This document shows, one piece after another, positions 19,002 through 35,588 of a DNA stretch of 61,602 bases. Each line of letters starts with the position of its first letter. The stretch's first letter is position 1. Position numbers and translations under genes: made by a program. Below the pieces are notes generated by a model, which did not search any database, was not told the DNA's origin, and saw only the letters and a program-made list of their open reading frames with translations. This stretch comes from a virus: the IMG/VR virus record IMGVR_UViG_3300045988_170590, one strand, 5' to 3'.

Positions 19002-19030
19002 TTGACAAAGTTATTCCGTTGGGTTATAAT
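19002..19030 (+). promoter_or_regulatory. Perfect consensus promoter TTGACA-17 nt-TATAAT
   Basis: TTGACA at 19002-19007, a 17-nt spacer, and TATAAT at 19025-19030. Confidence 0.65.
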
Positions 19031-19616: not shown

Positions 19617-20591
19617 ATGCAAGTTCCTTACAGTCATTTTGAAGAATTACTTAATGAAAAAGGTTTAACTTCATACCGCGTTGCCAAAGATTTAGGTTTT
19701 TCTACGGTTTTGTTTACTCATTGGAAAAATGGTCGCTCTGCGCCAAAAATTGACAAACTTAATAAAATAGCAGAATACTTAAATGTTCCCATCAGTTACT
19801 TTATTGATGGGAGAACGAATAGTGCTTACGAAAAGAATAATGGAATTATAACTTTTTACGACAGAGTTATTGACTTATGTATAAAAAACAACATAAATAA
19901 AACAACCCTTGAAAAAAAATTGGGCTTTTCACAAAACTCCGTTAATAAATGGAAAACCTCTACACCTTCCGTTAAAAAAGTTCAGCAGTTGGCAGATTTT
20001 TTCAATGTTACACCTGCTTATTTAATGGGATTTGAATCAGATAAAAAGAATGACGGGGAAAAAGTGTTCAAAGAAAACTTCACTCGGATTTGCGCTAAAA
20101 AGGGATTGTCTCCCACAGCGGTTTGTTTGGATGTGGGGATTTCAAAATCAAATTACTCAAATTGGAATGATAATTCAATACCAAGAAAAACTACATTGAT
20201 TAAGATTGCCGACAGGTTAAATGTTGATATTTCGGAATTAACAAGTGGCACTTACGAAGGAAACTATAAAATGCAAGTAAAATACGAGTATTTTGCAGAT
20301 TTAATTGAAAAAAAAGGGCTAACCGCTTATAGAGTTGCAAAGGACACCAACCTTACAACCGTGTTATTTACTGATTGGAAAAAAGGTAAATCTAGCCCTA
20401 AATTTGATAAGTTAAGCAAAATAGCAGAATACTTAAATGTTCCCGTCAGTTACTTTGTCGACGGAAAAACCGATAAACCCTACGAAGAAAAGAAAGCCGA
20501 GGCAAAGTCGCTTATTAGCGACTTAACCCCGGAAGAAATCAAAAAGGTACAGGAATATATAGTTTTCTTAAAAAGCCAAAGAAAAAAGTAA
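19617..20591 (+). CDS. Repressor-like protein with four tandem XRE-type HTH domains
   Basis: Four repeats of the pattern (L/I)...G(L/I)(T/S)...(V/L)....G.S......W..G...P....L..IA..LNV...Y(F/L). Domains 1 and 4 share a 39-nt stretch with one mismatch. Confidence 0.8.
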   Translation: MQVPYSHFEELLNEKGLTSYRVAKDLGFSTVLFTHWKNGRSAPKIDKLNKIAEYLNVPISYFIDGRTNSAYEKNNGIITFYDRVIDLCIKNNINKTTLEKKLGFSQNSVNKWKTSTPSVKKVQQLADFFNVTPAYLMGFESDKKNDGEKVFKENFTRICAKKGLSPTAVCLDVGISKSNYSNWNDNSIPRKTTLIKIADRLNVDISELTSGTYEGNYKMQVKYEYFADLIEKKGLTAYRVAKDTNLTTVLFTDWKKGKSSPKFDKLSKIAEYLNVPVSYFVDGKTDKPYEEKKAEAKSLISDLTPEEIKKVQEYIVFLKSQRKK

Positions 20592-20601
20592 TTGAAATAA
20601 T

Positions 20602-21096
20602 ATGAGTATTTATTTGATTTGCGATACCACCATGATGTATTGGTCTACCATTTTGGCAAATATCGCGACAATAATAACCGGCATTTCGGCGTTTACTGCG
20701 CTCATTTGTTTGTTAAGAAATGCGTGCTTAAAGAAAAAATTAAATTGTAATATCTTCGTTTCCGAAGTATGCAAAACAATAAAAGGAGTAAAAGCGTTAA
20801 AATTATTTATAACATTTTCTAACCCATCAGAAATGGAGAAATGTTTAATAACTTTAACTTTCTCGCACAACTTTCGATTATATCCCATTTTTAATGGCAA
20901 CGCCGACATTAACAGTGTTAAGTACAAAGATATGGTATTAAACGAAGTTATACCCGCAAATCAATCAAAAACAATAAATTGTATCATCTTCGATAATGAC
21001 GACATTTTTCACGACAAGGTAAACCTCGTTTTGAAAGCCAAAACGGTAAATAAAGTTTTTACTTATAAAAAAGAAATCAAATTTCCCGATTTCTAA
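20602..21096 (+). CDS. Membrane-anchored hypothetical protein
   Basis: N-terminal hydrophobic helix WSTILANIATIITGISAFTALICLL. Located in the lysogeny block. Confidence 0.55.
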   Translation: MSIYLICDTTMMYWSTILANIATIITGISAFTALICLLRNACLKKKLNCNIFVSEVCKTIKGVKALKLFITFSNPSEMEKCLITLTFSHNFRLYPIFNGNADINSVKYKDMVLNEVIPANQSKTINCIIFDNDDIFHDKVNLVLKAKTVNKVFTYKKEIKFPDF

Positions 21097-21320
21097 ACGT
21101 TTACCATTAAACTCGAAATAATTCCCCATATGAGGATTACTATCATTCCGCCAATAAAGCAAGCAAAAGAAACATAAATAACAATAATACCCACTGACAT
21201 CAGTTTATCAAGGTTTAATACATCTCCTATAAGAGCCGAAAAAACACCAAGAGAGAATAGTATCGGGCTTAAAAAAGATAAAAATACACCAACGTTCTCT
21301 ATACTCATATCACTCCTCAA
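21093..21320 (-). CDS. Small two-TM membrane protein
   Basis: 75 aa, almost entirely hydrophobic, convergent with 20602-21096. Confidence 0.5.
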   Translation of the reverse strand: MRSDMSIENVGVFLSFLSPILFSLGVFSALIGDVLNLDKLMSVGIIVIYVSFACFIGGMIVILIWGIISSLMVNV

Positions 21321-21407
21321 AATGTTTCGTAATTATATTTTATGGGTGACATTAAGCCAAAAGCAAGATGTTTTGGTGTCAAAAAACAGTCATAAGTTAA
21401 ATGGTGT

Positions 21408-22244
21408 ATGGATAAGATTAAAATTTTTGAAAATAGAAACGTGCGCACCCTATGGAACGCCGACGAGGAAGAATGGTATTTTTCGGTAGTCGACGTAATT
21501 TCGATATTGACTGATAACGATTATCAAACGGCGCGAAAATACTGGAAAGTTCTAAAAGGCAGATTAAAAGATGAAGGCAGTGAGTTGGTATCATTTTGTT
21601 ACCAACTGAAAATGCGTTCTCCCAAAGACGGGAAAGAATATAATACCGACTGCCTTGATACAAAGGGTGTTTTACGTCTTGTGCAGTCTATCCCCTCGCC
21701 CAAAGCCGAGCCTTTTAAGGTTTGGCTTGCGAAAGTCGGTAGTGAAAGACTCGACGAAATCGCTGATCCCGAAAAGGCTATGCTCCGTGGCGTAGAGTTT
21801 TACCGTAAGAAAGGTTATCCCGAAGAATGGATAAATCAGCGCATGCTTGCGCTCAGAACGAGAAAAAATCTTACCGACGAATGGAAAGAGCGGGGTATTA
21901 AAGAAGGCAAAGAATACGCTATATTAACCGACGAGATGACAAAGGCTTGGAGCGGTATGTCGGTAAAGGAATATAAAAACCTTAAAGGTTTGAAAAAAGA
22001 AAATCTTCGCGATAATATGACCGACATAGAGTTGATTATAAATATGCTCGCAGAAGTTACCGCTACTACCCTTTCCAAAGAAGAAAAACCCGAAACCTTT
22101 AACGAGAGTAAATCCATAGTAAAACGCGGCGGCTCTCTTGCGGGCGAAACCCGCAAACGCTTTGAAGAAACGACGGGGACAAAAGTCACCACCGCTTTGA
22201 ACGCCGAGGATAAACCTGCCCTTGAACAAAGAGACAAAAAGTAA
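21408..22244 (+). CDS. Bro-N / DinD-like domain protein (possible antirepressor)
   Basis: The N-terminus IKIFENRNVRTLWNADEEEWYFSVVDVISILT is Bro-N-like. Confidence 0.6.
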   Translation: MDKIKIFENRNVRTLWNADEEEWYFSVVDVISILTDNDYQTARKYWKVLKGRLKDEGSELVSFCYQLKMRSPKDGKEYNTDCLDTKGVLRLVQSIPSPKAEPFKVWLAKVGSERLDEIADPEKAMLRGVEFYRKKGYPEEWINQRMLALRTRKNLTDEWKERGIKEGKEYAILTDEMTKAWSGMSVKEYKNLKGLKKENLRDNMTDIELIINMLAEVTATTLSKEEKPETFNESKSIVKRGGSLAGETRKRFEETTGTKVTTALNAEDKPALEQRDKK

Positions 22245-22246
22245 GA

Positions 22247-22264
22247 GGAACACCGAAGTGTTCC
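22247..22264. terminator. Perfect 7-bp hairpin GGAACAC-cgaa-GTGTTCC between convergent genes
   Basis: Read directly from the sequence. No strong U tract on the + strand and only a partial one on the - strand. Confidence 0.45.
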
Positions 22265-22288
22265 CCCTACCGAAAATGGATTATAGTA

Positions 22289-22411
22289 CTATGAGCGATT
22301 TGAAATAATTTCTTTCATAAAGAAAATCAAGAAATCAAGTTCGGATTCGGAATATGTATCGTTGTCGATTTCTTTGATAAGGTCTTGTTGATCTCTTGTT
22401 AATTTGTTCAT
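22289..22411 (-). CDS. 40-aa acidic peptide (MNKLTRDQQDLIKEIDNDTYSESELDFLIFFMKEIISNRS)
   Basis: GGAGG SD 6 nt upstream. Below the ORF-track length cutoff. Confidence 0.4.
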   Translation of the reverse strand: MNKLTRDQQDLIKEIDNDTYSESELDFLIFFMKEIISNRS

Positions 22412-22585
22412 CGTTTTCCTCCGTAAGGGTTGCCCCTTTTTGTTTCAAGTGTACCACCTTATAACAAAATGTCAAGGCTCAATATTGGAACTTCGAGGGT
22501 CGATATTGGTTCTTTCGAGTACCATTCGCGGTTTTAGAACAAATTTCGACAATTCTCGACGAATAAATTAAATAAGGGAGAAATA

Positions 22586-22909
22586 ATGAAAACACTAAAA
22601 GAAGACCTCAACAAACTTAAAGACAAACACAACCTTACCCTACCAGATATTGCAGAAAAATCGGGGATTCCGTTGTCAACAGTAAAAAAGATTTTCAGCG
22701 GAGAAACCCGAGACCCCGGGTATCTTTCTTTGAAACCGATATTAGACGTTTTACAACAGGAAGAAAAGAACTCAAAATCCTTGTCCGATGAAATGATAGA
22801 CCTCTGCGAAAGAGTGATTAAACGTAAAAACGGCTGGATTAAATTTTTAACCGTTTTATCGCTATTCCTCATCACTCTATTTGTTTCATTACTCATTTAC
22901 GATTTCTGA
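22586..22909 (+). CDS. XRE-type HTH protein with a C-terminal transmembrane anchor
   Basis: HNLTLPDIAEKSGIPLSTVKKIFSGETR (HTH) plus C-terminal FLTVLSLFLITLFVSLLIY. GGGAG SD. Confidence 0.65.
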   Translation: MKTLKEDLNKLKDKHNLTLPDIAEKSGIPLSTVKKIFSGETRDPGYLSLKPILDVLQQEEKNSKSLSDEMIDLCERVIKRKNGWIKFLTVLSLFLITLFVSLLIYDF

Positions 22910-22974
22910 GACTTAAATATCGGATTTATCAGGACTCGCGCCGATCGTAATACCACCTCTATAAGCATGTCTCT

Positions 22975-24117
22975 ATGAATGAAAAATTCTATATAAGCAG
23001 CACGAAAGCGAATATTCAAGAACGGCAGACAAAATTAAACGGAAAAGTCTACGATATTCGTTTCAGGGTGCTACTCCCTACCGGCGAAGAAACTTACAAA
23101 AAGTTATCGGGCTACAAATCGAAAGCCCTCGCAAAACAGGCGCATATAGACTTCATAACGAAAAACTGCGAACTCGTAAAGAACAACCCGTTAAAAAAGA
23201 AAAAAGCCGTAGAAGAAGGCAAAGACGAATTAACCGTCAAAAACCTCGCCCCGCTATATATAACGTCTATGTCAAATCAAAACAAAGACAGCACCATATA
23301 TGACCGTCGCGCCGACCTTAATAATTTCGTCGTACCGTATTTTAAGAATACAAAAATCTCCGATTTAACACCACAAAGGCTTTATGAGTGGCAAGATTAC
23401 CTTTGGAATATGAAAAACCCGCGCACGGGCGATTTTTATTCGTACAGCCATTTATCAAGTATACGCGGTACAATGAGTACATTTCTCGCATGGTGCGAAA
23501 TCCGCTACGGAGTTACCAATAATTTACGCAAAGTAAAAAAGCCGAAACGCCGCACGCCTAAAACCGCTATGCAGTTCTGGACACGCGAAGAGTTCGACAA
23601 GTTTATAGCCGTCGTGGATAACCCAACCTACCGCGCAATTTTTTACACTTTATTTTTTACAGGGAGAAGAAAAGGCGAAGTCCTCGCTTTATATTCCGAC
23701 GACGTACACAACGATTATATCGTCTTCGATAAAACCTGCACACGAAAAACGTTAGACAACTCGCCTTACAAAATAACCTCAACAAAAAACGAACGCCGCG
23801 CAAAAACTATTATTTGCAAACCGTTAAAAGTCGCCCTTGCCGAATATACACCCCAAAAACCTTTTTATTTCGGCGGACAACACCCTACACCCGAAAATAC
23901 GATTACACACGCCTTTGAACGCTACATAGCAAAGGCAGGCGTTAAACGAATCCGCATACACGACTTACGCCACTCATTCGTCTCTATGTGCATTCACCTC
24001 GGCGCAAGCGTCTACGTTGTCGCCGACCTCATAGGCGATACCGTCGCACAAGTTTTCAAAACTTACGGTCATCTATACGAAGAAGACAAACTCAATATCA
24101 TATCCCGTATAGAATAA
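22975..24117 (+). CDS. int: Tyrosine integrase
   Basis: GRRKGEVLAL (Arg), HDLRHSFVS (HxxR) and YGHLY (catalytic Tyr region). The N-terminus looks like an arm-binding domain. Confidence 0.85.
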   Translation: MNEKFYISSTKANIQERQTKLNGKVYDIRFRVLLPTGEETYKKLSGYKSKALAKQAHIDFITKNCELVKNNPLKKKKAVEEGKDELTVKNLAPLYITSMSNQNKDSTIYDRRADLNNFVVPYFKNTKISDLTPQRLYEWQDYLWNMKNPRTGDFYSYSHLSSIRGTMSTFLAWCEIRYGVTNNLRKVKKPKRRTPKTAMQFWTREEFDKFIAVVDNPTYRAIFYTLFFTGRRKGEVLALYSDDVHNDYIVFDKTCTRKTLDNSPYKITSTKNERRAKTIICKPLKVALAEYTPQKPFYFGGQHPTPENTITHAFERYIAKAGVKRIRIHDLRHSFVSMCIHLGASVYVVADLIGDTVAQVFKTYGHLYEEDKLNIISRIE

Positions 24118-24748: not shown

Positions 24749-24842
24749 TGGCGGAAGATACAGGACTCGAACCTATACAAGCAACATTTATTCGCTTGGA
24801 CGGTTTAGCAAACCGCTGCGCTACCCGTTACGCCAATCTTCC
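24749..24842 (-). tRNA. tRNA-Ser (anticodon GCU), class II with a long variable arm, CCA encoded
   Basis: Hand fold: acceptor GGAAGAU/AUCUUCC, anticodon loop UUGCUAA, variable stem CAAGC/GCUUG, T arm AUAGG-UUCGAGU-CCUGU. Confidence 0.85.
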
Positions 24843-24973
24843 GAATTGGTCGAGATTTGCATAAAAAACTCGGCACTCGACCCCGCAAGTTCTTCTTACC
24901 TTGCGCCACCGTCCACGAGTAATCGGCTCTCCGACGGTCGTTGCCTTACTTTTCCGTCTTTCAGACAACCATT

Positions 24974-25049
24974 TGGCAGGGGCAGAAAGACTCGAACTTC
25001 CGAAATCACGGAATCAAAATCCGTTGCCTTACCGCTTGGCAATACCCCT
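24974..25049 (-). tRNA. tRNA-Gln (anticodon UUG), CCA encoded
   Basis: Acceptor AGGGGUA/UGCCCCU, anticodon arm ACGGA-UUUUGAU-UCCGU, T arm GGAAG-UUCGAGU-CUUUC. Confidence 0.85.
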
Positions 25050-25115
25050 ATAAATTTAAGACACCCGCACCGATATAAACACTTTATTAAGGATTGATAC
25101 CGGTACGAGCGTCAA

Positions 25116-25190
25116 TGGTTGCAGAGAGAGGACTCGAACCTCTGACTTTCAGGTTATGAACCTGACGGGCTACCACTGCCCTACTCCGCG
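25116..25190 (-). tRNA. tRNA-Met (anticodon CAU) with a C1xA72 acceptor mismatch, CCA encoded
   Basis: D arm GGGC-AGUGGUA-GCCC, anticodon arm UCAGG-UUCAUAA-CCUGA, T arm AGAGG-UUCGAGU-CCUCU. An Ile2-type (lysidine) identity cannot be excluded. Confidence 0.8.
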
Positions 25191-25199: not shown

Positions 25200-25545
25200 A
25201 AAAACCTCTGAGCGAACTGTGCCACTCCAAAAGTCTTTCTTTTTATTTTTTCGGCGTTCTTCGCTGCCCGACAGTCGACCACATAGCCTTCGGCAGCCAC
25301 ACGCCGTTTCGTGGGTTTTAGTCTCATCCACCCACAACTTCCGCAAGCGACAGGATTTGAACCTGTAATCGTCTTTTAGCCGTCGCTATCCGACACCCCG
25401 TCTCAGTCGGGTTACACTCACATTTATGTAAAGACAGCCCGGGAAGGCTCTCAGGTCAGTTTCTATCAGGTGCATAAATATGAAACCGCCCCACAATTAC
25501 AGCCCCTCTTTATAAAGAACCGCAACCGCTTCTTGTCTTTACACT
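25200..25545 (-). ncRNA. Candidate structured RNA with an embedded tRNA-like T arm, directly upstream of the tRNA cluster
   Basis: No ORF. T-arm-like ACAGG-UUCAAAU-CCUGU (25350-25366). Nested helices CGGCGU/ACGCCG around GCUGCC/GGCAGC (25252-25306). Hairpin GUGGGU/ACCCAC (25311-25335). 9-bp long-range pair 25428-25436 / 25534-25542. Confidence 0.35.
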
Positions 25546-25922
25546 TCGCATTTTATCATATGTCTTTTCTATTTGCAAGCCTTTTAACTGTCAATAATCC
25601 GTCACATATGTAAATCCGACACCCTCACCACTCACCCCTCACAGTCGCTTAACTACCCCCACCTACAACCTTACCTCTCCCCTTTCTACACCCACGCTCC
25701 CACTCACCTATTTACAATCTCAATGCTTTTTAAGTTTTTAATACTTTCTTCACTCTCTCAATTCTTTTTATCTCTATCTTCCATTTTCCCCTCTCCGAAA
25801 CTTTTTATGAACAGGAAAGAGAAAAATGCAGATATGCGCGGGTAACGGCTCTTTTTCGGCTTTCAAAGTCGGAAACCTACCCCGCCCGGCAAGGGCGCGG
25901 ACGGCTCGCAACGGCTGAGAAT

Positions 25923-25949
25923 GTTATAATAACTATAAATTATTATAAC
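25923..25949. promoter_or_regulatory. 10-bp perfect inverted repeat GTTATAATAA-ctataaa-TTATTATAAC (operator/promoter-like)
   Basis: Read directly. The left arm belongs to a 19-mer that recurs at 18937-18955. Confidence 0.5.
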
Positions 25950-26741
25950 GCATTTACACCAAAAACGGCACGCAGGCAAACACAAGCCGAAAACGCTTTA
26001 CACGTTCGGCAATGTCTGACAGTGCGGCAACCCGGCACGCCTTCACGCTGTGCGGGCTGTAACGGCGAACACCCCGAAGACATAAAGCATTAAAAAACAT
26101 AATTATAATAAAATAAATAAAATACGCATTAAAAAAAACGTAATAATATAAATAAAGACGTAAATATAAAAAGCATAAAAGCATTAAAAAAATATATAAA
26201 AGCGTTTAAGCATAAAATAAACGTTTTAAGGGTGTAAAGGCTTTTTATATGCTTAAAAGCGTTAAAAGCATTGAAAAAGCCTTTTATAATTGTAAAGGCT
26301 TTTTATTATATATATAAATGCTTTTATATAGTAAAAATGGGGGCGGCGGGTTTTGTAAAAATATATGTCAAACGTATGGCATATATAAAATATTTTAATT
26401 TTGTTTTTTTGGTACGGTTGCCGGGGCTTTGGGTTTCGGTTTTATTTGCCGGCGTTCTAAGTGTTGCGGACGGTCTCGGGCGTTGTTTCGGGGCTGTTTT
26501 TTCTGGTGTCGCAGACGGTGCCGGGCTGACGGCATAAAATAAAAAAATCGAAGGTAAAACCTCCGAATTTATTAAAAATAGTACAGTTGTATAATATTTA
26601 TTATAATTACTTATATAATACTATATTTCATAAATTATTATACATATGTAATATTTTCTATATTGCATTGATTCCCTTCACTTTTTTTTTGAATGATGGT
26701 ATAATATAGACAGTTAAAAGAGATAAGCAAGGAGGCAAAAA

Positions 26742-26888
26742 ATGGCGGATAAAATCAAACAACAGGAGGCGGACGAGATGACCGCAACGGAGGCAATTTT
26801 GCTAACGGTGCAACAACTCGCCGACAAATGCGCCACGCTCGAAGAGTTCAGAACAGCCCTTCGGGAAATAATCGCAAAAGGCGAATAA
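26742..26888 (+). CDS. 48-aa hypothetical protein (MADKIKQQEADEMTATEAILLTVQQLADKCATLEEFRTALREIIAKGE)
   Basis: AAGGAGG SD 6 nt upstream, an extended -10 (TGGTATAAT) about 45 nt upstream, and an inverted repeat (26894-26937) downstream. Confidence 0.55.
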   Translation: MADKIKQQEADEMTATEAILLTVQQLADKCATLEEFRTALREIIAKGE

Positions 26889-27081
26889 AAAAAAGTTTTT
26901 TCGGTTGCGTGTCTGGTAAACTGTGACCGAAAAAACTAAACGAAAAACCGCAAAATATAAGCGACAAAAGAGATCCGCCCCTTTTGGCGTTTGCGTGTTT
27001 TCGTAAATATAATAATCAATCAAAATAAAAAAGTCAAACGATTTTAATATATATAATATAAATTTTTCAGAGGTGCAAAAA

Positions 27082-27474
27082 ATGAGAACGACGAACAGCA
27101 AAACAAACATAAACACGAACGCCAAAAAAATAACGGCGTTAAACGTTTACGAGATTATCAAGAACGGCGGCGCGACACTTAACGCGGACGGCGTAGCGGT
27201 AAACTTTTCAAAGGGCTATCAGGTAAGCCGCCGCGACTGTTACCGAATCGCGACAGAAAAAGCAAACGAAATCGCCGCCGCGGTCAATGAGTTGTTGAAC
27301 AGCATAAGCGCGGGCGAGTTTGTCGGGCTTTGGAGCGATGGCGGGTTTGTTTATATTGATATAAGCGAAAACATTAAAAGCAAGAAAAAGGCGTTAAAAA
27401 TCGGAAGGGCGCGCCGTCAATTATCAATTTACGAATGGAAAACAGGCGCATGCCTCGATTGCGGGAGGGCTTAA
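27082..27474 (+). CDS. Hypothetical protein
   Basis: 130-aa ORF. AGAGGTG SD before the ATG at 27082. Confidence 0.65.
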   Translation: MRTTNSKTNINTNAKKITALNVYEIIKNGGATLNADGVAVNFSKGYQVSRRDCYRIATEKANEIAAAVNELLNSISAGEFVGLWSDGGFVYIDISENIKSKKKALKIGRARRQLSIYEWKTGACLDCGRA

Positions 27475-27476
27475 AA

Positions 27477-27536
27477 ATGGTTGAAGTAGTCAGCAAAATA
27501 AACGGTATAAAAAAAGAATTAAAAGTAATAGAATAA
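27477..27536 (+). CDS. Possible 19-aa leader peptide (MVEVVSKINGIKKELKVIE)
   Basis: Strong GGGAGGG SD 8 nt upstream. Followed by a GC-rich structured 140-nt spacer. Confidence 0.25.
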   Translation: MVEVVSKINGIKKELKVIE

Positions 27537-27676
27537 ACGCGCGAACAGTCGAAACGGCGGAATCTTTGAGGGGTTGCGCCGTCGGCGGTGGGATAGCCTC
27601 CCCGCCCTGACGATGACAGGCTGACGCGGTAAGGCGCGAGCGGTAAAACGCCGCACACGCGTAAAGGGTTTTTATT

Positions 27677-28042
27677 ATGAAATTTTCCCGATACAATCAA
27701 CCGAAAAGACACAACAGGCGCAACGAATGCCGGCAAGAGTTGGCGGGCATGGTTATTTTAACACAAAAAGAATATGAGCGCGAACAGAACGCCGAGGCGA
27801 TAGCGTTTGAAAAGTTTATGAACAGCGAAGGCGGCATATTTGACGGATTCGCATTTGTAAATCTTTTTCACGAGCATTTCGACAAGTGCAACGCGATTTA
27901 TACGACTGAAAGCAACGACACCGCCGACGCGATAACGCCCTTCGGCACGTTCCACACGGGCGCGGACGGTGTAGCCGTTTACTTTTTCAGCGAACAGCCG
28001 ACAAAACAAGTAAATTTTAATTGTAGCGTATATTTTATATAA
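27677..28042 (+). CDS. Hypothetical protein (start may be 27749)
   Basis: Co-oriented ORF. Both candidate starts have a weak SD. Confidence 0.5.
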   Translation: MKFSRYNQPKRHNRRNECRQELAGMVILTQKEYEREQNAEAIAFEKFMNSEGGIFDGFAFVNLFHEHFDKCNAIYTTESNDTADAITPFGTFHTGADGVAVYFFSEQPTKQVNFNCSVYFI

Positions 28043-28061
28043 ATTTTCGGAGGTTTTAATT

Positions 28062-29825
28062 ATGGAATACGCAATAAACAAAAACACAAATTTTAATAGT
28101 TTGGAAATCACCTTCGCCGGCAAGCCCGACGAACAGACACGCAACGCATTAAAAGCGAACGGCTACCGGTGGCACGGAGTCCGCCGCCTTTGGTACGGTT
28201 ACACGGACGAGCAGACGATCCGCGCCGCCCTTGACGGCGTAACAATAGAAAACGCGAACGAACAGACGGCGAGCGCGAAAACACCCGGGAGAACGGCAAA
28301 AAATCGTTTGCCGAGCCTTTGGGAGCGTTGCGACGTCAGCGGAATAAAACAGCACGACAAAAACAACTTGCCGCCCGTTAAGGACATCGCCGCGCTTTTG
28401 CGTAAAGAATTAAAAACGAGATTCCCCGAAGTAAAATTTTCGATTACTTCGACATATAACACGATCGACGCGTATATAAAGGCGTCGCCGTATGAACGCC
28501 GGCACATAATGAAAGACAGACGAACGGGCGAGCCGGACAAGTACGGATATTTTGAAGACAGCGACGAATTAAACGCCGTACAAGCCTATTGTAAAGCCCT
28601 TGCCGATTCTTGGAATTACGACGACAGCGACACAATGACCGACTATTTCGACGTGCATTTTTACGGCGGTTATTTTCAAATCTCCGGCAATTACGAACAG
28701 ACCGAGCCGACGGACGAACAGAAGGCGGATATTGCGGACTTTAAGAAAAGAAAAGCCGAAAAAGAAGAACGAGACCATGCGGAATTTTTGGCGCAATGCG
28801 AACGCGACAGAATACAGCGCGAAAAGGACGAGGCGGCGGCGCGTATACAAGCGCAGAAGGACGCAATCGCCCGCGAACAGATAGAGAAGGCGGCAATCGT
28901 TACGGATATACCCGAAAACGAAAGAAGAGTGTATTTTGACCTTGCGGAATATTGCAAAATATCGAGCCTTGACGACGGCGAAAAGTGGCTTGAAGAATAC
29001 ATAAAGGACGGCGAACAGTTGCCGCAGGTCGACGCCGTGGTGTCGCGCCGTGTAGACTTCAACGGCTATTCTGATAACGATAAAAAGATTTTTGCCAACT
29101 TCTGCCGGATGTTTATGTTTGATTTTACATTTTTACAGGGTAAAGGCGGACACGAAACAGCCGACGCGCGAGTGACGAAGGAAAATTACGAAAAATTGAC
29201 GAGCGAACAGCGTAAGGGCGTAAAATGGTATGATTGCGATTGCGTAGCGGTTTACAATAACGGCGTACTTCAATTTATTATCGACCCGGAGGGGTTTAGT
29301 TATGCTCGTTATATCTTGCAACTTCCCGAGGGTTTCGACGAACGAATCGACAGCGAAAACGCCGCCGAGTGGATAAACGCCCAAAAAGAAGAAACGAGCA
29401 AGCGCACGCCGTTCTATATCCCCGCGCCTGTCGGCGAACAGATAGCGCAAGCCTGTTTACAGCCGGGCGAACGCGTAACCGTTTTAACGGTTGACGGCTG
29501 GGTAATGGTGGCTCAGGAATACCGCGGAACGCTTGAAAGCATAGAGGCGAAAGCATGGGCGCAATATTCAGACGCGGGCGAAATAACGATAACGAGAGCA
29601 GGCAAAAGAAAGCCCGACGAGTTACACTTCCACCGGGGCGAGACGTTCGCATTATATCGCGGAATACTTCCCGAAGTGCCGAACAGCCTAAAATACGAAG
29701 AATCCTCCGGCGGTTTGCAACTCGTAAATTATGCAGGAGCAGGCGCGGACGGATATATTAAAAGCGTTATGAAATATTATAAAACGCTCGGATATACGCC
29801 CGTAATAGACTTGATAGCAAAATAA
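28062..29825 (+). CDS. Large multidomain hypothetical protein resembling polyvalent proteins of phages and conjugative elements
   Basis: 587 aa. GGAGG SD. The N-terminal LEITFAGKPDEQTRNALKANGYRWHGVRRLWYGY resembles the KP...R..LK..GFRW......W module seen in plasmid and phage proteins. Central coiled coil. Confidence 0.7.
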   Translation: MEYAINKNTNFNSLEITFAGKPDEQTRNALKANGYRWHGVRRLWYGYTDEQTIRAALDGVTIENANEQTASAKTPGRTAKNRLPSLWERCDVSGIKQHDKNNLPPVKDIAALLRKELKTRFPEVKFSITSTYNTIDAYIKASPYERRHIMKDRRTGEPDKYGYFEDSDELNAVQAYCKALADSWNYDDSDTMTDYFDVHFYGGYFQISGNYEQTEPTDEQKADIADFKKRKAEKEERDHAEFLAQCERDRIQREKDEAAARIQAQKDAIAREQIEKAAIVTDIPENERRVYFDLAEYCKISSLDDGEKWLEEYIKDGEQLPQVDAVVSRRVDFNGYSDNDKKIFANFCRMFMFDFTFLQGKGGHETADARVTKENYEKLTSEQRKGVKWYDCDCVAVYNNGVLQFIIDPEGFSYARYILQLPEGFDERIDSENAAEWINAQKEETSKRTPFYIPAPVGEQIAQACLQPGERVTVLTVDGWVMVAQEYRGTLESIEAKAWAQYSDAGEITITRAGKRKPDELHFHRGETFALYRGILPEVPNSLKYEESSGGLQLVNYAGAGADGYIKSVMKYYKTLGYTPVIDLIAK

Positions 29826-29953
29826 TAAACGAACAGCCGCCCTTCCCTGAAAGGCGGGGCGGCGAACAGATAATACGACGAACAGATAAAAAATAAAAAA
29901 TCGCGGTAAGACTTGAACCGAACAGGCAAGCACGCAAAAGGATAAAAAAAATT

Positions 29954-30490
29954 ATGTCTACTTGTAACTTTACTAATCAAAACGACTTCCCGCTTTTTGC
30001 GACTAAACACTTCGACGGCTATTATTACGAAGACGAGGACACGGGAGAAACGGAATATGTCGAAAATATCGACTTTAACGGTTTTGAACAGGCTCAAAAA
30101 CTCGTTGACGAGTTTAACGACGGGCTTAACTATTTTCAATTAAGGCTTGAATGTGGCTATTATAACGGCGTGCAAACCTTACTCGAAGATAAAACGGACG
30201 CCTACGGTTGCGCATATCTGACAAAATACTATTCCGCCGCCGATTGGAAGAAAGGACGCGCCGAAGAAAAAGCCTACTACGGCTATTACGATGATTTTGA
30301 TATGTCGTACTCCGCCAGAAAGAAAGCCGAACAGCGCGAACTTCACAAAATACTTAACTTTTGCCGAACAAAATTAAAAGACTTGTACGACTTTGACGAG
30401 TACGTTTGTACGGCGAGATTTTCTAACGGCGAAACACTGTACGGACTGGCAAGCAACGAAAGAAACCGCATAAAAGCAGCGATCGCATAA
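29954..30490 (+). CDS. Acidic, Tyr-rich hypothetical protein
   Basis: 178-aa ORF rich in D, E and Y. No family recognised. Confidence 0.6.
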   Translation: MSTCNFTNQNDFPLFATKHFDGYYYEDEDTGETEYVENIDFNGFEQAQKLVDEFNDGLNYFQLRLECGYYNGVQTLLEDKTDAYGCAYLTKYYSAADWKKGRAEEKAYYGYYDDFDMSYSARKKAEQRELHKILNFCRTKLKDLYDFDEYVCTARFSNGETLYGLASNERNRIKAAIA

Positions 30491-30502
30491 GGGGGCGAGA
30501 AT

Positions 30503-30655
30503 ATGAAAAGAAACGAACAGAAAATCAAAGCGAAAGCGGAATTAAACCTTCCGCTTTCGGAACGGGAACGCGCCCGCTACCTGCTTTTTATCGCGAACAG
30601 CGAGCAAGCAAAAAAGTTTATAGACAATGAACAGATACGGAGAACAGTAAAATGA
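30503..30655 (+). CDS. 50-aa hypothetical protein
   Basis: GGGGG SD. ATGA overlap with the next ORF. Confidence 0.5.
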   Translation: MKRNEQKIKAKAELNLPLSERERARYLLFIANSEQAKKFIDNEQIRRTVK

Positions 30656-30855
30656 ATATAAATTGCGAGAAAATCAATAAAGAAGTCGGAATCGGCGTAA
30701 AAACGCCGGCAGAGGCAATTAAGCACGCGCGAGCAAAAATCAATTACCTGTATCGCGACAATAAAAATCTTAACTCAATGCAATGGCAGGCTGTTTTGGA
30801 ACTGCAATCTATAATCAAAAGCATAGAAAATTATGAAGGAGAGAATAAACAATGA
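30652..30855 (+). CDS. Hypothetical protein
   Basis: 67-aa ORF translationally coupled on both sides. Confidence 0.55.
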   Translation: MNINCEKINKEVGIGVKTPAEAIKHARAKINYLYRDNKNLNSMQWQAVLELQSIIKSIENYEGENKQ

Positions 30856-31529
30856 ACACGGCAACGATTGAAAAATGTATTGAACTATTGAACACGGGCA
30901 AAATCGACGATTTACGCGACTTATTAAACTACGAAAGAGAGACAAACATATTAGCCTCGAAAGGTGTTAAAATGAGCCTTTTGAACGCTGTAAAGAAGAT
31001 TGTTTGCGATAACGGCTTAAAAGAATGGCGTAAAAATCTTTATATACAGCATACACCGGACGGAAAGCAGTTTATATGCGACGGCTATCTTCTCGTTAAG
31101 TGGAACGAAGAACAGCCCGAACTGAACGCATTGCCGCAGACCCCTGTGAACGAAAGCATCAACGCAAACAATATTTTACGCACAACGGCAAGTATGTCAA
31201 AATACGAACTCACCGAAAGCGATAAAATAATCGCCGAAAATATAGACAAGTACATAAAACTTTACAACGAAAAAAAAGCAAGAAAATTCCCGGTAAAGTA
31301 TTGTAACAAGTTTTTCGACGCGACTTATCTAAAAAGGGCTTTTAGTGTTATCGGAACAGACTTTGAACACATTCTCACAGGTAAGGATGGAAACTCACCG
31401 CTCCAAATCTATGAAACGAACTATTCGGCGGTGTTATTACCGATAAATATAAACACTATCAAAGACGAAGACAAAACGATAATCGAACAGAACACGCAAA
31501 AGTTTGTAGAACAGATAAAGGGGGCATAA
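30852..31529 (+). CDS. Second short DnaN (clamp)-like protein, distant paralog of 4661-5260
   Basis: WRKNLYIQHTPDGKQFICDGYLLV and the C-terminal AVLLPINI parallel RPILQYIQIK...AYALDGYRAG and LILPIRI of the other copy. Confidence 0.35.
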   Translation: MNTATIEKCIELLNTGKIDDLRDLLNYERETNILASKGVKMSLLNAVKKIVCDNGLKEWRKNLYIQHTPDGKQFICDGYLLVKWNEEQPELNALPQTPVNESINANNILRTTASMSKYELTESDKIIAENIDKYIKLYNEKKARKFPVKYCNKFFDATYLKRAFSVIGTDFEHILTGKDGNSPLQIYETNYSAVLLPININTIKDEDKTIIEQNTQKFVEQIKGA

Positions 31530-31532
31530 ATA

Positions 31533-31685
31533 ATGATAATCAACGCGATTTTAATCGACTCATTAGCCGCAATTACGACAGTGGTCGTTGCAATTTTCGC
31601 AACAACCTTAAACAAGGCAAAAAACGGCAAAAGAACAGCCCTTTGGGTAAAGAAGAATAAACAAGACGGAGGCAAACAGAAATGA
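31533..31685 (+). CDS. 50-aa single-TM peptide
   Basis: MIINAILIDSLAAITTVVVAIFATTL followed by a basic tail. ATGA overlap with the next ORF. Confidence 0.45.
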   Translation: MIINAILIDSLAAITTVVVAIFATTLNKAKNGKRTALWVKKNKQDGGKQK

Positions 31686-32035
31686 AAAAAGACATTTTCA
31701 AAACTTTGAAAGACTATTCCGCCGGGTATCACCGAACGGCAACGCCCGAAGAGAACAAAATATACGACGCGGAAGTCGAAAGAATAAAAACGCGTATACT
31801 TGCCGACATTGAACACACCCCCGAAATAATCGCCGAAGAGTTTTCTAAACTCTGGGCGACAGAATATCGCCGTTTGTTTTCGGGCGTATATTCTACATTT
31901 GCAACGACTCCCGAATATAAAGCCGTCGATAATGTCTATATGGCATTGCTTGACAGTAAGCCGTTAAAAAGCATTACCGTAACGCAATGTAATGCAGATA
32001 AAGGAGCAGACTATGCGAGCAATGACCGAAATTAA
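31682..32035 (+). CDS. Hypothetical protein
   Basis: 117-aa co-oriented ORF. Confidence 0.6.
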   Translation: MKKDIFKTLKDYSAGYHRTATPEENKIYDAEVERIKTRILADIEHTPEIIAEEFSKLWATEYRRLFSGVYSTFATTPEYKAVDNVYMALLDSKPLKSITVTQCNADKGADYASNDRN

Positions 32036-32216
32036 AAACCTAAAAGATAAATGCGGCTTGTTCCGTGAGTTTTGCAAAATCACCGACTTGAAAGACGGCG
32101 ATTATTACAGCGCAGTTGATTATATCGAATATTGCGACGGCTTAACTTTGGCACAGACAATAGAAATAACGCGCAAATACGAACCCGATTTTAAGCGAAA
32201 CGATTGTAACTTATAA
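32013..32216 (+). CDS. Hypothetical protein
   Basis: AAAGGAG SD before the ATG at 32013. 23-nt overlap with the upstream ORF. Confidence 0.5.
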   Translation: MRAMTEIKNLKDKCGLFREFCKITDLKDGDYYSAVDYIEYCDGLTLAQTIEITRKYEPDFKRNDCNL

Positions 32217-32237
32217 TAACGGATAAAGGAATGAAAA

Positions 32238-33185
32238 ATGAAGAAACAGCAATTTAACGAGATAAGCACGCAATACCTTCTTGCCCTACCCTCTATGAAG
32301 AAATCGGATAAGACCGTTACGGCTTATAGTTTGGCTTTCAGGAAGTTTTCGGACTTCTTGAAAGCCGACGAACAGATAACGCCTTTAACCGTCGTAAATT
32401 GGCGTTCAAGCCTTTCTATGAGCGGGATAAAGACGAACAGCGTAAGGCAATATATGATTTTCATACACTCATTTTTCGAGTGGTGCGTCAAAATGAAAAT
32501 CGAACAGGAAAACCCCGTACACCTTGACGAGATACCCGAACAGCAACGCGTTGAATACGACCTTTTAACTCTCGACGAAATCAAAAGCCTAATAACGAAA
32601 ACTCCGACAGGGTTAAACGGTAAAACGATAATCAGAAACCGCGCTATAATTGTATTGCTTTTGCAAGCAGGTTTGCGAAATACTGAACTTCGTTCGCTGA
32701 CCGTTGCCGACCTTGATTTTGAGCAAAACAGAATCACGGTACGACACGGCAAAGGCGACAAACAAAGACTTGTGGCAATGCCGAGAGTTGCAAAGGAAAT
32801 AATCGAAGAGTATCTTTCAAGCGGTATTCGCCCGGAATGGTGTACCGATAACGATTATCTTTTCGGCACGGATTCCGATGAAAACGGGAAAAGTACCAAC
32901 GGTAAAATTTGGAAACAATTCTCGTCACCAGCATTGCTTATGCTCGTTCATAGATACACCGAGCATTGTTGCGGGCATAGTGTAAAAACTCACGCATTGC
33001 GCCATGCTTTCACGAGTTTATGCGATATGAGCGGAATGCCGATGACCGAAATATCTCAAAATCTCGGACACTCCAACCCGCTCGTTACGGCACAAGTTTA
33101 CCGTCACATACTTAATAAAGACACGGCTATTCAGTCTGCCGTCTCGGCTATGGATAGATTTACGAACAGCCTGCAAGGCGCATAA
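32238..33185 (+). CDS. Tyrosine recombinase, XerC/XerD-like
   Basis: GLRNTELRSL (Arg), HALRHAFTS (HxxR), GHSNPLVTAQVYRH (His/Tyr). The N-terminus looks like a SAM-like core-binding domain. Confidence 0.85.
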   Translation: MKKQQFNEISTQYLLALPSMKKSDKTVTAYSLAFRKFSDFLKADEQITPLTVVNWRSSLSMSGIKTNSVRQYMIFIHSFFEWCVKMKIEQENPVHLDEIPEQQRVEYDLLTLDEIKSLITKTPTGLNGKTIIRNRAIIVLLLQAGLRNTELRSLTVADLDFEQNRITVRHGKGDKQRLVAMPRVAKEIIEEYLSSGIRPEWCTDNDYLFGTDSDENGKSTNGKIWKQFSSPALLMLVHRYTEHCCGHSVKTHALRHAFTSLCDMSGMPMTEISQNLGHSNPLVTAQVYRHILNKDTAIQSAVSAMDRFTNSLQGA

Positions 33186-33188
33186 CAC

Positions 33189-33217
33189 TTGACTTTCCGG
33201 CGAACAGCCGATATAAT
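33189..33217 (+). promoter_or_regulatory. Consensus-like promoter TTGACT-17 nt-TATAAT with a CGAACAG copy in the spacer
   Basis: TTGACT at 33189-33194, TATAAT at 33212-33217, and CGAACAG at 33201-33207. Confidence 0.6.
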
Positions 33218-33281
33218 TAAAACTACAAACAAATAGAAATCTTATAAGGCTTGACGAACAGCAAGCAAAGGAAGGAACAAA

Positions 33282-33611
33282 ATGAACCACGAAGAACTTA
33301 CAAGGATTGTCAAAATTGCAAACGTTGAACAAATCAGACAAAAAATGTTTGAACTCGGTTATCGAGACGCAAAACAAGATGAAAAATTAAAGGCGATCCC
33401 TTTTGTTACGATTATTCAATCGACTATCGATGACACCGACCAATTTTTATCCGATGACGAACAATATTGCTTTGACGGGCATAAAAGCATAAACAACGAC
33501 GTTGCATTCGGCGTTGAATTTATTACCATACAAACAATGGAGTATAATAAAAAACGTAAAATGTATATAACGAGCGGTTTCGATATTTACGCAAAGGAGA
33601 TTACCGCATAA
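33282..33611 (+). CDS. Hypothetical protein
   Basis: 109-aa ORF with a GGAAGG SD. Confidence 0.6.
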   Translation: MNHEELTRIVKIANVEQIRQKMFELGYRDAKQDEKLKAIPFVTIIQSTIDDTDQFLSDDEQYCFDGHKSINNDVAFGVEFITIQTMEYNKKRKMYITSGFDIYAKEITA

Positions 33612-34078
33612 TGACATATTGGAAAATGTACTTGAAAAGGACTATTTACGATTGTTGTTACATTCTTGGAATACCCGAACCCAAAATAAAATGGCAACCG
33701 CAAGATAAATTCCCCACGGAAACTTTGGTGTCTGCCATAACAGGCTACAAAGGCGACTTAACAATTTTATTGTCAAATCAGTTCCTTTATAACGATATGA
33801 CCGACGCAAATCTCGCATTTTTTATTATGATTGTTGCACACGAACTGCGGCACTGTTGGCAAATTGAAAACGATTTAATAAAAGACTACGACATAACATT
33901 AGCGAACAGCGGCGATAAAAACGACTACAATAATCAAGAGGTTGAATTAGATGCCTACGGCTTTGCGTTCGCTTATTTAAGAAAAGAATACCACGTTGAG
34001 CCTATTCTTCCCCTTTCGGAAGAAACAATAGAAAACATACGCAAACACAGAGATACCATTGAAAAGGAGTTGTTTTAA
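33611..34078 (+). CDS. Putative zinc metallopeptidase (HExxH)
   Basis: MIVAHELRHCWQ motif. Confidence 0.5.
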   Translation: MTYWKMYLKRTIYDCCYILGIPEPKIKWQPQDKFPTETLVSAITGYKGDLTILLSNQFLYNDMTDANLAFFIMIVAHELRHCWQIENDLIKDYDITLANSGDKNDYNNQEVELDAYGFAFAYLRKEYHVEPILPLSEETIENIRKHRDTIEKELF

Positions 34079-34079
34079 T

Positions 34080-34247
34080 ATGTTTCCTTACACTCCTCAA
34101 CCCACAACAGACTATAAGCCATGCAATATATGCGGAAAGATATGTTTCAATTCCGACCTTGTTTGGACGGCTAAACACGCAGGAATATGCAAAGACTGCT
34201 ACAATAAATTAAAGGAGCAAAAGAACAGTGAGCGAAATAAAATTTAA
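34080..34247 (+). CDS. Small zinc-ribbon-like protein
   Basis: CNICGK...CKDC. The ATG at 34080 follows a GGAG. Confidence 0.5.
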   Translation: MFPYTPQPTTDYKPCNICGKICFNSDLVWTAKHAGICKDCYNKLKEQKNSERNKI

Positions 34248-34704
34248 TGTCGGAGATAAGGTAATATCATCTATGGGATTACAAGGCAAAATCGAAAAAG
34301 TTTTTAATGGGAAAGACTATATTCTTGCCTATATCAAATATGAAGACGGCAAAGAAGAATATATCACAGAATGCGATAAAACGCAAAACTTTGATTCTTT
34401 TTATTTAATCGGAAAGAATGTGTTTGGCAACAAAATCGATAAAGAAGAACTACAAAAAGAACTCGCCGAAATTGAAGACCGCAAGAAGTTATTAAGAAAG
34501 CAACTATGGCGACTTGATAACGTTATGGTCGAAGATTGGAAAGAGAAAAAAAACGACCGCATAAAGCGGGATAAAGAGACTGCCGAAATGCGTGTTGACG
34601 ACACCATAGAACGGCTTAAATCTCTCGTCGATAATTTGCCCGACGGCAACAAGAAATCAACCTTAAACGCCGCGATAGCCGCCTACGAAACCAATAAAGA
34701 TTAA
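34228..34704 (+). CDS. Hypothetical coiled-coil protein
   Basis: 158-aa ORF with a GTG start after a GGAG. Last gene of the rightward module. Confidence 0.55.
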   Translation: MSEIKFNVGDKVISSMGLQGKIEKVFNGKDYILAYIKYEDGKEEYITECDKTQNFDSFYLIGKNVFGNKIDKEELQKELAEIEDRKKLLRKQLWRLDNVMVEDWKEKKNDRIKRDKETAEMRVDDTIERLKSLVDNLPDGNKKSTLNAAIAAYETNKD

Positions 34705-34706
34705 AA

Positions 34707-34738
34707 AATAGCCCGCCGATTGAAGTCGACGGGCTATT
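34707..34738. terminator. Bidirectional terminator between the convergent rightward module and the late operon
   Basis: AATAGCCCG...CGGGCTATT stem flanked by an A run and a T run. Confidence 0.7.
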
Positions 34739-34739
34739 T

Positions 34740-35588
34740 TTATGCTCCACCTATTTTGAAATATTTAATTTTGCTTGTACTTGCCGAAGGTTTTATTCCT
34801 GTTGACGCCCCCGAGGTGGCAGCGAGATTGCTTATCACAATCGACCCGGTTTGATAAAGAATTAAAGACTCGTGCATTTTGTCGCCAACAAATACAAAAG
34901 CAAACCTACCTGTCGCGCCGTCCTTAGAACCACCGACAATGGTAAAATCAGCCAAATTATAGGTTGAGTCAAAACACTGCACCGCGTACATAGTATTTAA
35001 TTCAAAATACAACTGACGTCCTGCCGTCATTATTGTTTCTTTTACCAATCCAAATGTCGTCGAAACGGTATAAGACTTGGACGACTTAGTGATAGCGATT
35101 GTACTTCGAGTAAAAAAGTCTTGCGAAAAACTATAATACCATTTCGTATAGTTGTCCTCATTTGAAAATTGAAACAATGAAGACGAAGAGTTTATCGCCG
35201 TTCTAATCATTGCCCCGTTTTCCAATCTTGCATACTGCTCATCGGTAAATGTACCGCTACTGCTTGCCCCTATATCGACTATATCGACGGGAGTATCGAC
35301 ACTTAAATCGACAGGCAACCAAGCCACGGCATTGCGGAAAGAATCGTAAGTCGTAGCCACAAAAATATAGTCGCCGACGTTTGAATTTGCCACTGCGGTC
35401 GAATACGGAACGGAGATAACCGAGGATATATCGCCGATAAGTCTCACGTTCATTTTGGTAGATGTCTTTGAAACAATTTGGGCTTTATAAGTCCTTAGGC
35501 ACTCTTTTGTAATTTGGGCGATCCTTTCGTCAACGACCTTTTCAATCGCCCTTTTGATTGCAATACTGTCTGTTAAATCTGTAAGCAT
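34740..35588 (-). CDS. Distal tail / receptor-binding candidate (last late gene)
   Basis: 282-aa ORF at the end of the tail module. Function assigned by position only. Confidence 0.4.
   Translation of the reverse strand: MLTDLTDSIAIKRAIEKVVDERIAQITKECLRTYKAQIVSKTSTKMNVRLIGDISSVISVPYSTAVANSNVGDYIFVATTYDSFRNAVAWLPVDLSVDTPVDIVDIGASSSGTFTDEQYARLENGAMIRTAINSSSSLFQFSNEDNYTKWYYSFSQDFFTRSTIAITKSSKSYTVSTTFGLVKETIMTAGRQLYFELNTMYAVQCFDSTYNLADFTIVGGSKDGATGRFAFVFVGDKMHESLILYQTGSIVISNLAATSGASTGIKPSASTSKIKYFKIGGA

Follow-up and report, generated by a model that had tools for sequence, protein, structure and literature searches.

An oriented CGAACAG array in an accessory operon of a temperate siphovirus of gut Clostridia: a strand-specific signal and possible RNA-level tag

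The viral record IMGVR_UViG_3300045988_170590 (61,602 nucleotides; the whole stretch is referred to here as the window) contains a one-strand array of the heptamer CGAACAG within a rightward accessory operon of 15 open reading frames (ORFs) at 26742..34704 on the + strand. CGAACAG is a strand-specific signal that is selected at the nucleotide level and is not a by-product of the encoded proteins. The reading favored here, with a probability of about 0.4, is that the motif is a transcription-oriented RNA tag for the coordinated processing or decay of the cargo operon. By the ORF list and by Pfam, PHROG, and NCBIfam scans, the operon ORFs are mostly of unknown function and of the polyvalent-protein type. 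The operon is probably anti-defence cargo; LPD29 and related domains have been seen as such cargo (PMC5512222; bioRxiv 10.64898/2026.07.27.740549).

The heptamer occurs 36 times in the window, with 29 copies on the + strand and seven on the − strand. Dinucleotide shuffles of the whole window (n = 100) averaged 7.2 ± 2.9 copies and never exceeded 14. The + strand copies span 27092..33909 at approximately one per 240 bases, and CTGTTCG is absent from the + strand in this interval. The − strand copies are located at 182, 12635, 13741, 15855, 39755, 52159, and 55134, and no antisense copy exists anywhere in the window. The density is 4.3 per kb in the module and 0.13 per kb in the rest of the window, an enrichment of approximately 30-fold. 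A sequence-only reading of this stretch had reported the same 29 positions, the seven copies elsewhere, the absence of the reverse complement from the module, the placement of all 36 copies on the local sense strand, and the density contrast, and an exact recount was identical. It had also listed ten further copies that differ only at the first base (DGAACAG). These copies exist, but the coordinates given for them mark the G of GAACAG, and the copy given as 27830 is at 27820.

The core of the motif is the hexamer GAACAG, which has 40 copies from 26851 to 34228 and no reverse-complement copy. The extended logo is R-CGAACAG-M, with a purine preferred on the 5' side and C or A preferred on the 3' side, and the information content is limited to 6–8 nucleotides. 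Each single-mismatch variant of CGAACAG occurs five times or fewer in the module. Iterons and centromere repeats form regular intergenic clusters, whereas this array is mostly coding and irregular, with intervals of 9 to 890 nucleotides between copies. No second conserved element at a fixed distance (promoter −10 or inverted partner) was found between −30 and +45 in six arrays. An extracytoplasmic function (ECF) sigma promoter with a −35 GAAC requires a −10 element 16–17 nucleotides downstream, which is absent in these six arrays. The Firmicute LexA (Cheo) box has the form CGAAC-N4-GTTCG; the inverted GTTCG partner was not found here, and the sense strand contains 10 GTTC against 88 GAAC.

The orientation of the copies flips exactly with transcription, + copies lying in the + operon and − copies in − strand genes; replication direction and gene direction are not separable within the phage genome. 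The array begins past the leader gene(s) and ends ahead of the terminator. GAACAG is also present upstream of the array at 25809 and 26851, and the AT-rich untranscribed leader at 25400-26700 is essentially free of it. Sorted by segment, GAACAG has 40 copies in the module against 2.5–4.4 expected, 16 in the early left arm against 6–7 expected, a chance-level 9 in the late arm against 7–9 expected, and 0 in the lysogeny genes against about 1 expected.

Sixteen of the 29 copies read xxC-GAA-CAG and six read xCG-AAC-AGx; the third frame is unused, and seven copies are intergenic. Exactly four more in-frame GAA-CAG pairs occur without the preceding C. This frame split, the preceding C, and the four other pairs are as the sequence-only reading had them. 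An origin of the motif in base composition, codon usage, or Glu-Gln-rich proteins would agree with the A-rich sense strand and with the 16 of 22 coding copies that encode Glu-Gln. Synonymous shuffles were performed by permuting codons within each gene so that the proteins and per-gene codon usage were retained (n = 2000). The shuffled mean was 6.0 ± 2.0 coding copies and the highest count 15, against the 22 observed, in agreement with the earlier claim that protein sequence does not explain the array. In six other arrays, the observed count is approximately twice the shuffled mean, with z of 3–6, and all three frames are used. The proteins of the operon are themselves bent toward the motif: Glu-Gln pairs number 26 where the amino-acid frequencies predict approximately 8, and GAA-CAG encodes 20 of the 26. 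By lengths taken from the ORF coordinates of the operon, the intergenic density (7 copies in ~814 nucleotides) exceeds the coding density (22 copies in ~7149 nucleotides) about 3-fold. Across five arrays, all 29 intergenic GAACAG are sense-oriented. The base before the motif is fixed despite being synonymous, and single-mismatch variants are rare, both of which also argue against an origin in coding.

Six IMG/VR relatives of 80–90% DNA identity contain 26–40 copies each, with no more than one reversed. Homologous copies are intact in these relatives at 27/29, 20/21, 26/28, 25/29, 27/29, and 16/20, whereas background 7-mers of the same alignments survive at 50–54%. The check in homologues that the sequence-only reading had proposed therefore comes out in favor of the heptamer (27/29 against 0.50). 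The by-product explanation is refuted by the shuffle tests, in the window and in the six other arrays, and by the conservation in relatives, and it is left with practically no probability.

More distant loci (numbered here with the prefix L) were gathered through homologues of the LPD29 protein, the recombinase, and the leader gene of the operon, followed by an unbiased k-mer screen. The k-mer screen found one-strand arrays in at least 10 further lineages, and the transcription-sense orientation is also present in 10 other arrays. The word can be sorted by lineage. GAACAG itself is the word in L307 (42:0, sense to reversed), in L298/L306 (30 copies per 4.2 kb), and in L299 (23:1). Words extended on the 5' side are (C)AGAACAG in L223/L224/L309/L310 (GAACAG 46:0 across more than 10 kb), TGAACAG in L216 (GAACAG 27:1), and AGAACAG in L135 (GAACAG 27:0). 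L133 has GAACAGA, with 17 copies against 1.1 expected. L130/L132 have the word CTGAACAG, with 18 copies against 1.2 expected and GAACAG at 44:1. The word is TAAACAG in L137, L145-147, L161, and L183 (9–12 copies against 0.5–0.8 expected), and (CT)GAACGRAA in L148 (operon 10897-21606), where GAACGAA is present at 26:1 and GAACGGAA at 10:0. In the TAAACAG clade, at 84% identity, 11 of 13 copies survive against 0.41 for background hexamers.

Where an array follows a homologue of the leader gene at 27073-27474, the first copy lies 0–18 nucleotides past the stop codon of that gene. This start, together with a GAACAG-free leader gene, was found in six of eight loci checked, from four lineages (L130, L298, L306, L307, L309, and L310). 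The exceptions are L299 and the window. The arrays end 0.5–3 kb short of the operon end. The other array-bearing loci derive from Clostridia metagenome-assembled genomes. When viral contigs were scanned for three copies in close proximity, the matches other than close relatives were all tandem coding repeats. No DNA similarity to deposited phages was found, and literature searches returned no described function or architecture for the motif. As a separate observation, L163 and L156, which are jumbo-phage-like and carry distant LPD29 homologues, contain CATCCTC and CCTCAGC at 14–17 copies each against approximately 0.3 expected.

Ribozymes adjoin motif copies in the window and in three of these loci. 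A type II hammerhead ribozyme was identified at 27547..27625 (+ strand) in the gap after the leader gene, with an Rfam score of 39.4 bits against a gathering score of 37. It overlaps by 2 nucleotides the GAACAG that starts at 27543. The core is composed of CUGACGA, GAAA, and GUC, and stem II uses the CAG of the adjoining copy. The region is conserved among relatives, in which stem III shows compensatory changes. Five relatives were compared, and four of them have the core CCGAUGA, not CUGAYGA, and fall below the Rfam threshold. L298 and L306 contain a twister-P5 ribozyme of 49.3 bits (L298 10924-10982; L306 10957-11015), the 3' end of which is 1 nucleotide from a GAACAG. They also contain a type II hammerhead of 51.2 bits (L298 12483-12550; L306 12516-12583), which starts within a GAACAG copy and reads GAACAGUCGAAAC as in the window. 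L299 contains a twister-P5 of 45.3 bits (3051-3123), with AAACAGAACAG 6–10 nucleotides after it. Each ribozyme of L298, L306, and L299 is thus 0–10 nucleotides from a motif copy. No Rfam ribozyme was found in the array-free L127 and L129, nor in L128, which has only a weak GAACAGA excess. Most array-bearing operons have no Rfam-detectable ribozyme.

According to Perreault et al. (2011), bacterial hammerheads cluster near prophage integrases and flank single genes or short blocks, one example being ardA between tail and integrase genes, with cutting of the polycistronic RNA (PMC3088659). The array operon occupies the same neighbourhood of anti-restriction-type genes between tail and integrase genes; that study described the ribozymes and no dispersed short-motif array. 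A long imperfect hairpin, …GCGCGUAARYCYUGACCGCC…GGGCGGCARG…GGCGCGGAGG, is conserved in L307 (10402-10460), L309 (6180-6240), and L130 (13563-13610), where it is located 3' of a motif copy and 5' of a ribosome-binding site. This hairpin may act in RNA processing or stability, or may represent a structured RNA that has no description so far.

The pattern fits best a signal that is read as transcription proceeds, either on the RNA or on the non-template strand, because the copies are sense-only, are limited to one unit, consist of a short lone word, and number approximately two per gene. The gradient, highest in the module, intermediate in the early genes, and lowest in the late and lysogeny genes, points the same way, as do the ribozymes in the same transcripts. 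In the proposed mechanism, the GAACAG-core word would mark the whole polycistronic transcript of one accessory operon. An RNA-binding protein or an endoribonuclease with short-motif specificity would read the word on nascent or mature RNA, and the operon would be controlled as a unit through timed shut-off, decay, or processing. This control would be separate from that of the lysogeny and late genes. Two points here are inferred: the target of the reader is RNA and not DNA, and the outcome is coordinated control of the transcript. A more specific form is tentative and on balance somewhat unlikely: an operon-wide barcode, in which a 6–8-nucleotide word placed about every 200–250 nucleotides in coding and intergenic RNA is read by a dedicated factor alongside the ribozymes, so that one anti-defence transcript class is processed, licensed, or destroyed as a unit, and in which the word drifts among lineages (GAACAG, TAAACAG, GAACGRAA) as the specificity of the reader changes.

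Several results weigh against the RNA tag. No RNA-binding protein or ribonuclease was found among the scanned proteins of the window and the related operons; in the scan for nuclease domains, many ORFs fell in no family. Four or five genes of the operon have no exact copy. The predicted unpairedness of the motif is above that of composition-matched permutations, but the predicted RNA accessibility is no higher than with shuffled flanks, and this equality is no evidence either way. Hairpins 3' of intergenic copies show no significant enrichment (p = 0.24). Among gene classes, only the distal site-specific recombinase tracks the arrays, which points to DNA. The product of the leader gene at 27073-27474, the candidate with the best placement, was considered as the reader and rejected, since it has an effector-type fold and is absent from several array clades. 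Its AlphaFold model has a predicted local distance difference test (pLDDT) value of 87 and no PDB match. The viral structure matches are to uncharacterised proteins and to domains in large polyvalent proteins, and the fold recurs within phage polyvalent proteins of 800-1100 amino acids. With these matches and its absence from array clades, the modeled protein is probably an effector. The LPD29 protein was likewise rejected as the reader because L127 and L129, which have LPD29 but belong to a different genome type and lack the recombinase, contain no array. L230 and L231 are further array-negative relatives.

Known RNA-level systems are similar by analogy. T4 RegB targets GGAG in early mRNAs, mainly in Shine-Dalgarno regions, and MazF-type mRNA interferases recognize sites of 5–7 nucleotides. 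Like the array word, these are short sense-strand motifs concentrated in one temporal or functional transcript class. RegB sites are mainly in Shine-Dalgarno regions, whereas the array copies are mostly within coding sequence, and no cognate nuclease of the RegB or MazF kind was found among the proteins scanned here.

The stoperators of Cluster A mycobacteriophages (L5 gp71-type) suggest a different explanation. A phage DNA-binding protein bound to an asymmetric double-stranded site would block RNA polymerase in an orientation-dependent manner and keep the accessory operon off in the lysogen. In phage L5, the stoperators are mostly intergenic, are spread over both genome arms, and occur approximately once per 1.7 kb. 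The array is approximately 75% intragenic (22 of 29 copies in coding sequence), is confined to one operon, and has about one copy per 0.24 kb, so it is mostly within genes and much denser than a roadblock requires. Of the systems described so far, only stoperators have many asymmetric sites that are all oriented with transcription. Dozens of copies of one word provide control at the level of the operon in a temperate siphovirus, and the variants of the word differ among clades (PMC9283540). The sense-only orientation and operon limits of the array agree with this explanation, as do its clade-specific variants, since stoperators co-evolve with their repressors. The first copy 0–18 nucleotides past the stop codon of the leader gene and the unusual four-HTH_3 protein encoded by the phage are also in accord. 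The two systems differ in the word itself. Known stoperators are 13–14 bp long, are bound by the immunity repressor, and share their sequence with an operator at the early lytic promoter; the array word is 6–8 nucleotides, and no related operator sequence is present in the immunity region at 18150-19680. A site of 6–7 bp would be expected approximately 1,500 times per 2–3 Mb host genome, a figure extrapolated from the host sample, in which each strand has about one GAACAG per 3–4 kb. The motif is also at no more than chance level in the late genes and missing from the lysogeny genes. The comparison breaks down over the length, location, and distribution of the sites and over the identity of the operator, and silencing of this kind is considered unlikely.

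The recombinase bears on an explanation at the DNA level. The operon of the window contains an Xer-like tyrosine recombinase gene (32238..33185, + strand) with conserved catalytic RKHRHY residues. Five copies lie in this gene, four in its initial 300 nucleotides and one toward the 3' end. Homologues terminate most array-bearing operons. The recombinase is Xer-like in most lineages, while L298/L306 instead have a FtsK-motor homologue followed by a serine resolvase (L298 15041-16698; also in L306). This pair sits at the operon end, the position of the Xer-like recombinase elsewhere. The motor homologue is 348 amino acids in length, has no gamma domain, and matches PDB 2IUU with E = 4e-35. The array could accordingly be a polar guide that loads or orients a FtsK/SpoIIIE-type motor toward a recombinase site at the operon end. 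Favoring this are the strict co-orientation of the copies, the recombinase as the sole array-tracking gene class, the true FtsK-motor homologue and resolvase of L298/L306, and the motif-free final 0.5–3 kb of the operon. FtsK-orienting polar sequences (KOPS) are likewise short, purine-rich, and divergent within Firmicutes (PMC3384302). Together with SpoIIIE recognition sequences (SRS) and TraB-clt repeats, KOPS resemble the array as short purine-rich polar words linked to Xer-type recombination.

KOPS and SRS are skewed along the host chromosome, and the host DNA does not show this for the array motif. The host sample is small and consists of approximately 30 kb of prophage-free DNA (L326 and positions 1-8100 of L329). 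It contains five sense and three antisense CGAACAG against approximately 2.5 and 1.7 expected, and GAACAG at 7:3. A host enrichment had been suggested by four copies in the 6.5-kb flank of L316 and was gone at ~30 kb of host DNA. The hexamer that is skewed in the host is GGCAGA (26:2 in the 22 kb of L326; GGCAGAA 14:0). The phage window also over-represents GGCAGA, with 44 copies where shuffles give 14.9, and 33 of these copies are on the − strand. Within the module, three of four GGCAGA are antisense to the genes. This suggests that GGCAGA carries a separate, DNA-strand-type polarity, although these four copies are the only ones that discriminate it from a sense-strand effect. GGCAGA is a candidate for the real polar (KOPS/SRS-like) motif of the host, adopted by the prophage. 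The lack of host enrichment or skew of CGAACAG counts against KOPS and Chi readings, as evidence and not as proof because the sample is small. The array also follows operon limits and avoids non-coding leader DNA, and its density is more than 20-fold over that of any known KOPS. No translocase is encoded by the window. KOPS and SRS converge on a dif-like Xer site. The Xer-like recombinase gene stands at the distal end of the array operon, and a comparison of the sequences downstream of the recombinase genes found no shared site, dif-like or other. A translocase guide is quite unlikely.

Chi sites are short, oriented, and over-represented, and some phages, such as P1, are Chi-rich. These general features would also suit a host Chi-like role, in which the sites protect or recombine the region through AddAB. 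Against this, the motif is neither over-represented nor skewed in the host DNA, the phage itself encodes the recombination proteins RecT and YqaJ, the module is not at a packaging end, and the orientation tracks transcription. Such a role is extremely improbable, and the Chi-like or translocase-guiding signal that the sequence-only reading had listed among possible functions is disfavored on the host counts above.

MmeI, BREX, and DISARM-type sites have the form NNNNAG with adenine at position 5 and are non-palindromic N6-methyladenine (m6A) sites. GAAC-A-G has the non-palindromic 6–7-mer form with a penultimate adenine that is seen in BREX, type IIL, and DISARM sites, a resemblance of form only. 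A phage or host enzyme could on this basis methylate or nick GAAC-A-G on one strand, and besides the form of the motif this is supported by the three DNA methyltransferases (N6_N4, MT-A70, and C5) and the PAPS-reductase-like protein of the phage. These are encoded in the early arm at 3006-4061, 7925-8746, 8719-9321, and 14543-15484 (− strand). However, phages deplete defence sites, and here the motif is enriched 30-fold. Confinement to one operon is unexplained as well. In phage T7, EcoP15I sites have one orientation over the whole molecule. They resemble the array as many non-palindromic words in a single orientation; in the window, the orientation flips with gene direction and head-to-head pairs result. 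The earlier suggestion of type III evasion fails on these inversely oriented pairs on the same molecule. Modification or nicking is highly unlikely. The motif core GAACA matches the DRACH form of eukaryotic MT-A70 enzymes, possibly by coincidence.

In principle the array resembles known systems of oriented oligonucleotides, yet it does not pass the tests that define any of those considered here. Among the functions proposed in the sequence-only reading, sites for a phage DNA- or RNA-binding protein, or an mRNA-level tag, fit best, because the array keeps to the polarity of transcription and to the limits of the operon and because ribozymes adjoin the copies. That reading missed the hexamer core, the variant words in distant relatives, and the position of the module at the prophage edge, usually with an Xer-like recombinase at its end.

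Should the array prove to be a signal that is read, selection at the nucleotide level would have reshaped the codon choice and the amino-acid sequence of the operon alike and would have kept the array in place through large turnover of gene content. The array would then provide a new handle on the control of anti-defence cargo in temperate phages of uncultured gut Clostridia, and a functional context for the long-unexplained self-cleaving ribozymes of prophage accessory regions. The array is also a simple signature with which cargo operons and their boundaries can be found in metagenomes. Lineage-specific words, such as that of L148, enable a co-variation screen for the reader.

The window is a complete temperate siphovirus genome, and its sibling contigs are 59.5–62.2 kb in length and circularly permuted. 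Leftward genes are the majority and include those for the tape-measure protein, RecT, YqaJ, and SSB. The rightward lysogeny block (19617-24117, + strand) encodes the four-HTH_3 protein, a Bro-N protein, and the integrase, and contains no motif copies. Its first gene (19617-20591, + strand) encodes a 324-amino-acid protein with four tandem Cro/C1-type HTH_3 domains, which is unusual for an immunity-region protein. No inverted repeats indicating a tail-fibre shufflon were seen.

Two sigma-70-like promoters are located upstream of the array on the + strand, TTCACT-17-TG-TATAAT at 26677-26705 and TTGGCG-18-TATAAT at 26984-27013. The first operon gene is a small leader gene of 48 amino acids (26742..26888, + strand), homologues of which come first in the L216, L131, and L128 arrays. 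It is followed by the 133-amino-acid leader gene at 27073..27474 (+ strand; phrog_17808). The LPD29-domain protein gene (28062..29825, + strand; 587 amino acids) contains nine CGAACAG copies, and a four-copy intergenic cluster (29826..29953, + strand) surrounds a GC-rich hairpin at 29837-29857. Downstream of the recombinase gene, the intergenic region at 33186..33281 (+ strand) contains a near-consensus promoter, TTGACT-17-TATAAT (33189-33217). The copy at 33201 is within the spacer of this promoter, and the copy at 33255 is in the 5' leader of the next gene. The final exact copy, at 33903, lies in a gene for an HExxH (zincin-like) protein (33611..34078, + strand). The last operon gene (34228..34704, + strand) is motif-free, and its homologues adjoin the recombinase in L130 and L131. 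A bidirectional terminator with a 16-bp stem (34704..34741) is located where the operon meets the leftward tail genes.

Three tRNA genes, tRNA-Ser, tRNA-Gln, and tRNA-Met (24749..25190, − strand), adjoin the attachment region. The first two are Ser(GCU) and Gln(UUG). Read in its two frames, the motif creates AGC and CAG codons, and the phage tRNAs may therefore offset the codon bias imposed by the array. A tRNA-like 3' fragment is present near 25340-25370 on the − strand. The AT-rich non-coding region at 25400-26700 contains several repeat families, among them AAAGCATTAAAAAA and GTAAAGGCTTTTTAT with three copies each, and is probably attP, an origin, or a regulatory region. Many assemblies break in this region.

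L316 is an integrated copy of the window phage type, and its first 6.5 kb is host sequence with uvrA, uvrB, and a hydrolase gene. The host UvrB is named in its sources as 'Acidiphilium sp. CAG:727', 'Eubacteriales', or 'Candidatus Borkfalkiaceae'. The hosts are Ca. Borkfalkiaceae-like gut Clostridia. In integrated copies, the tRNA side (24749-25190) abuts the host uvrA-uvrB cluster, and the operon begins at the prophage edge, reads inward, and diverges from the host genes. In the L131 lineage, the operon is located directly after the host transfer-messenger RNA (tmRNA) gene. The site next to host uvrB (L327/L328 ~8050-8570; L316 ~6320-6500) has three alternatives among strains: a window-type prophage, an element with ArdA, MutS_I, and PcfJ genes, or nothing. 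The L328 element with these three genes, at the same attachment site, contains no array. The uvrB-adjacent site is an integration hotspot in Ca. Borkfalkiaceae-like genomes. In the sibling L302, a 524-amino-acid large serine recombinase (5324-6898) stands in place of the tyrosine integrase, and the upstream genes at 608-1534, 1852-2865, and 4008-5123 encode Fic, Rep-like, and second integrase proteins. This replacement and the extra genes indicate module swapping at the lysogeny end.

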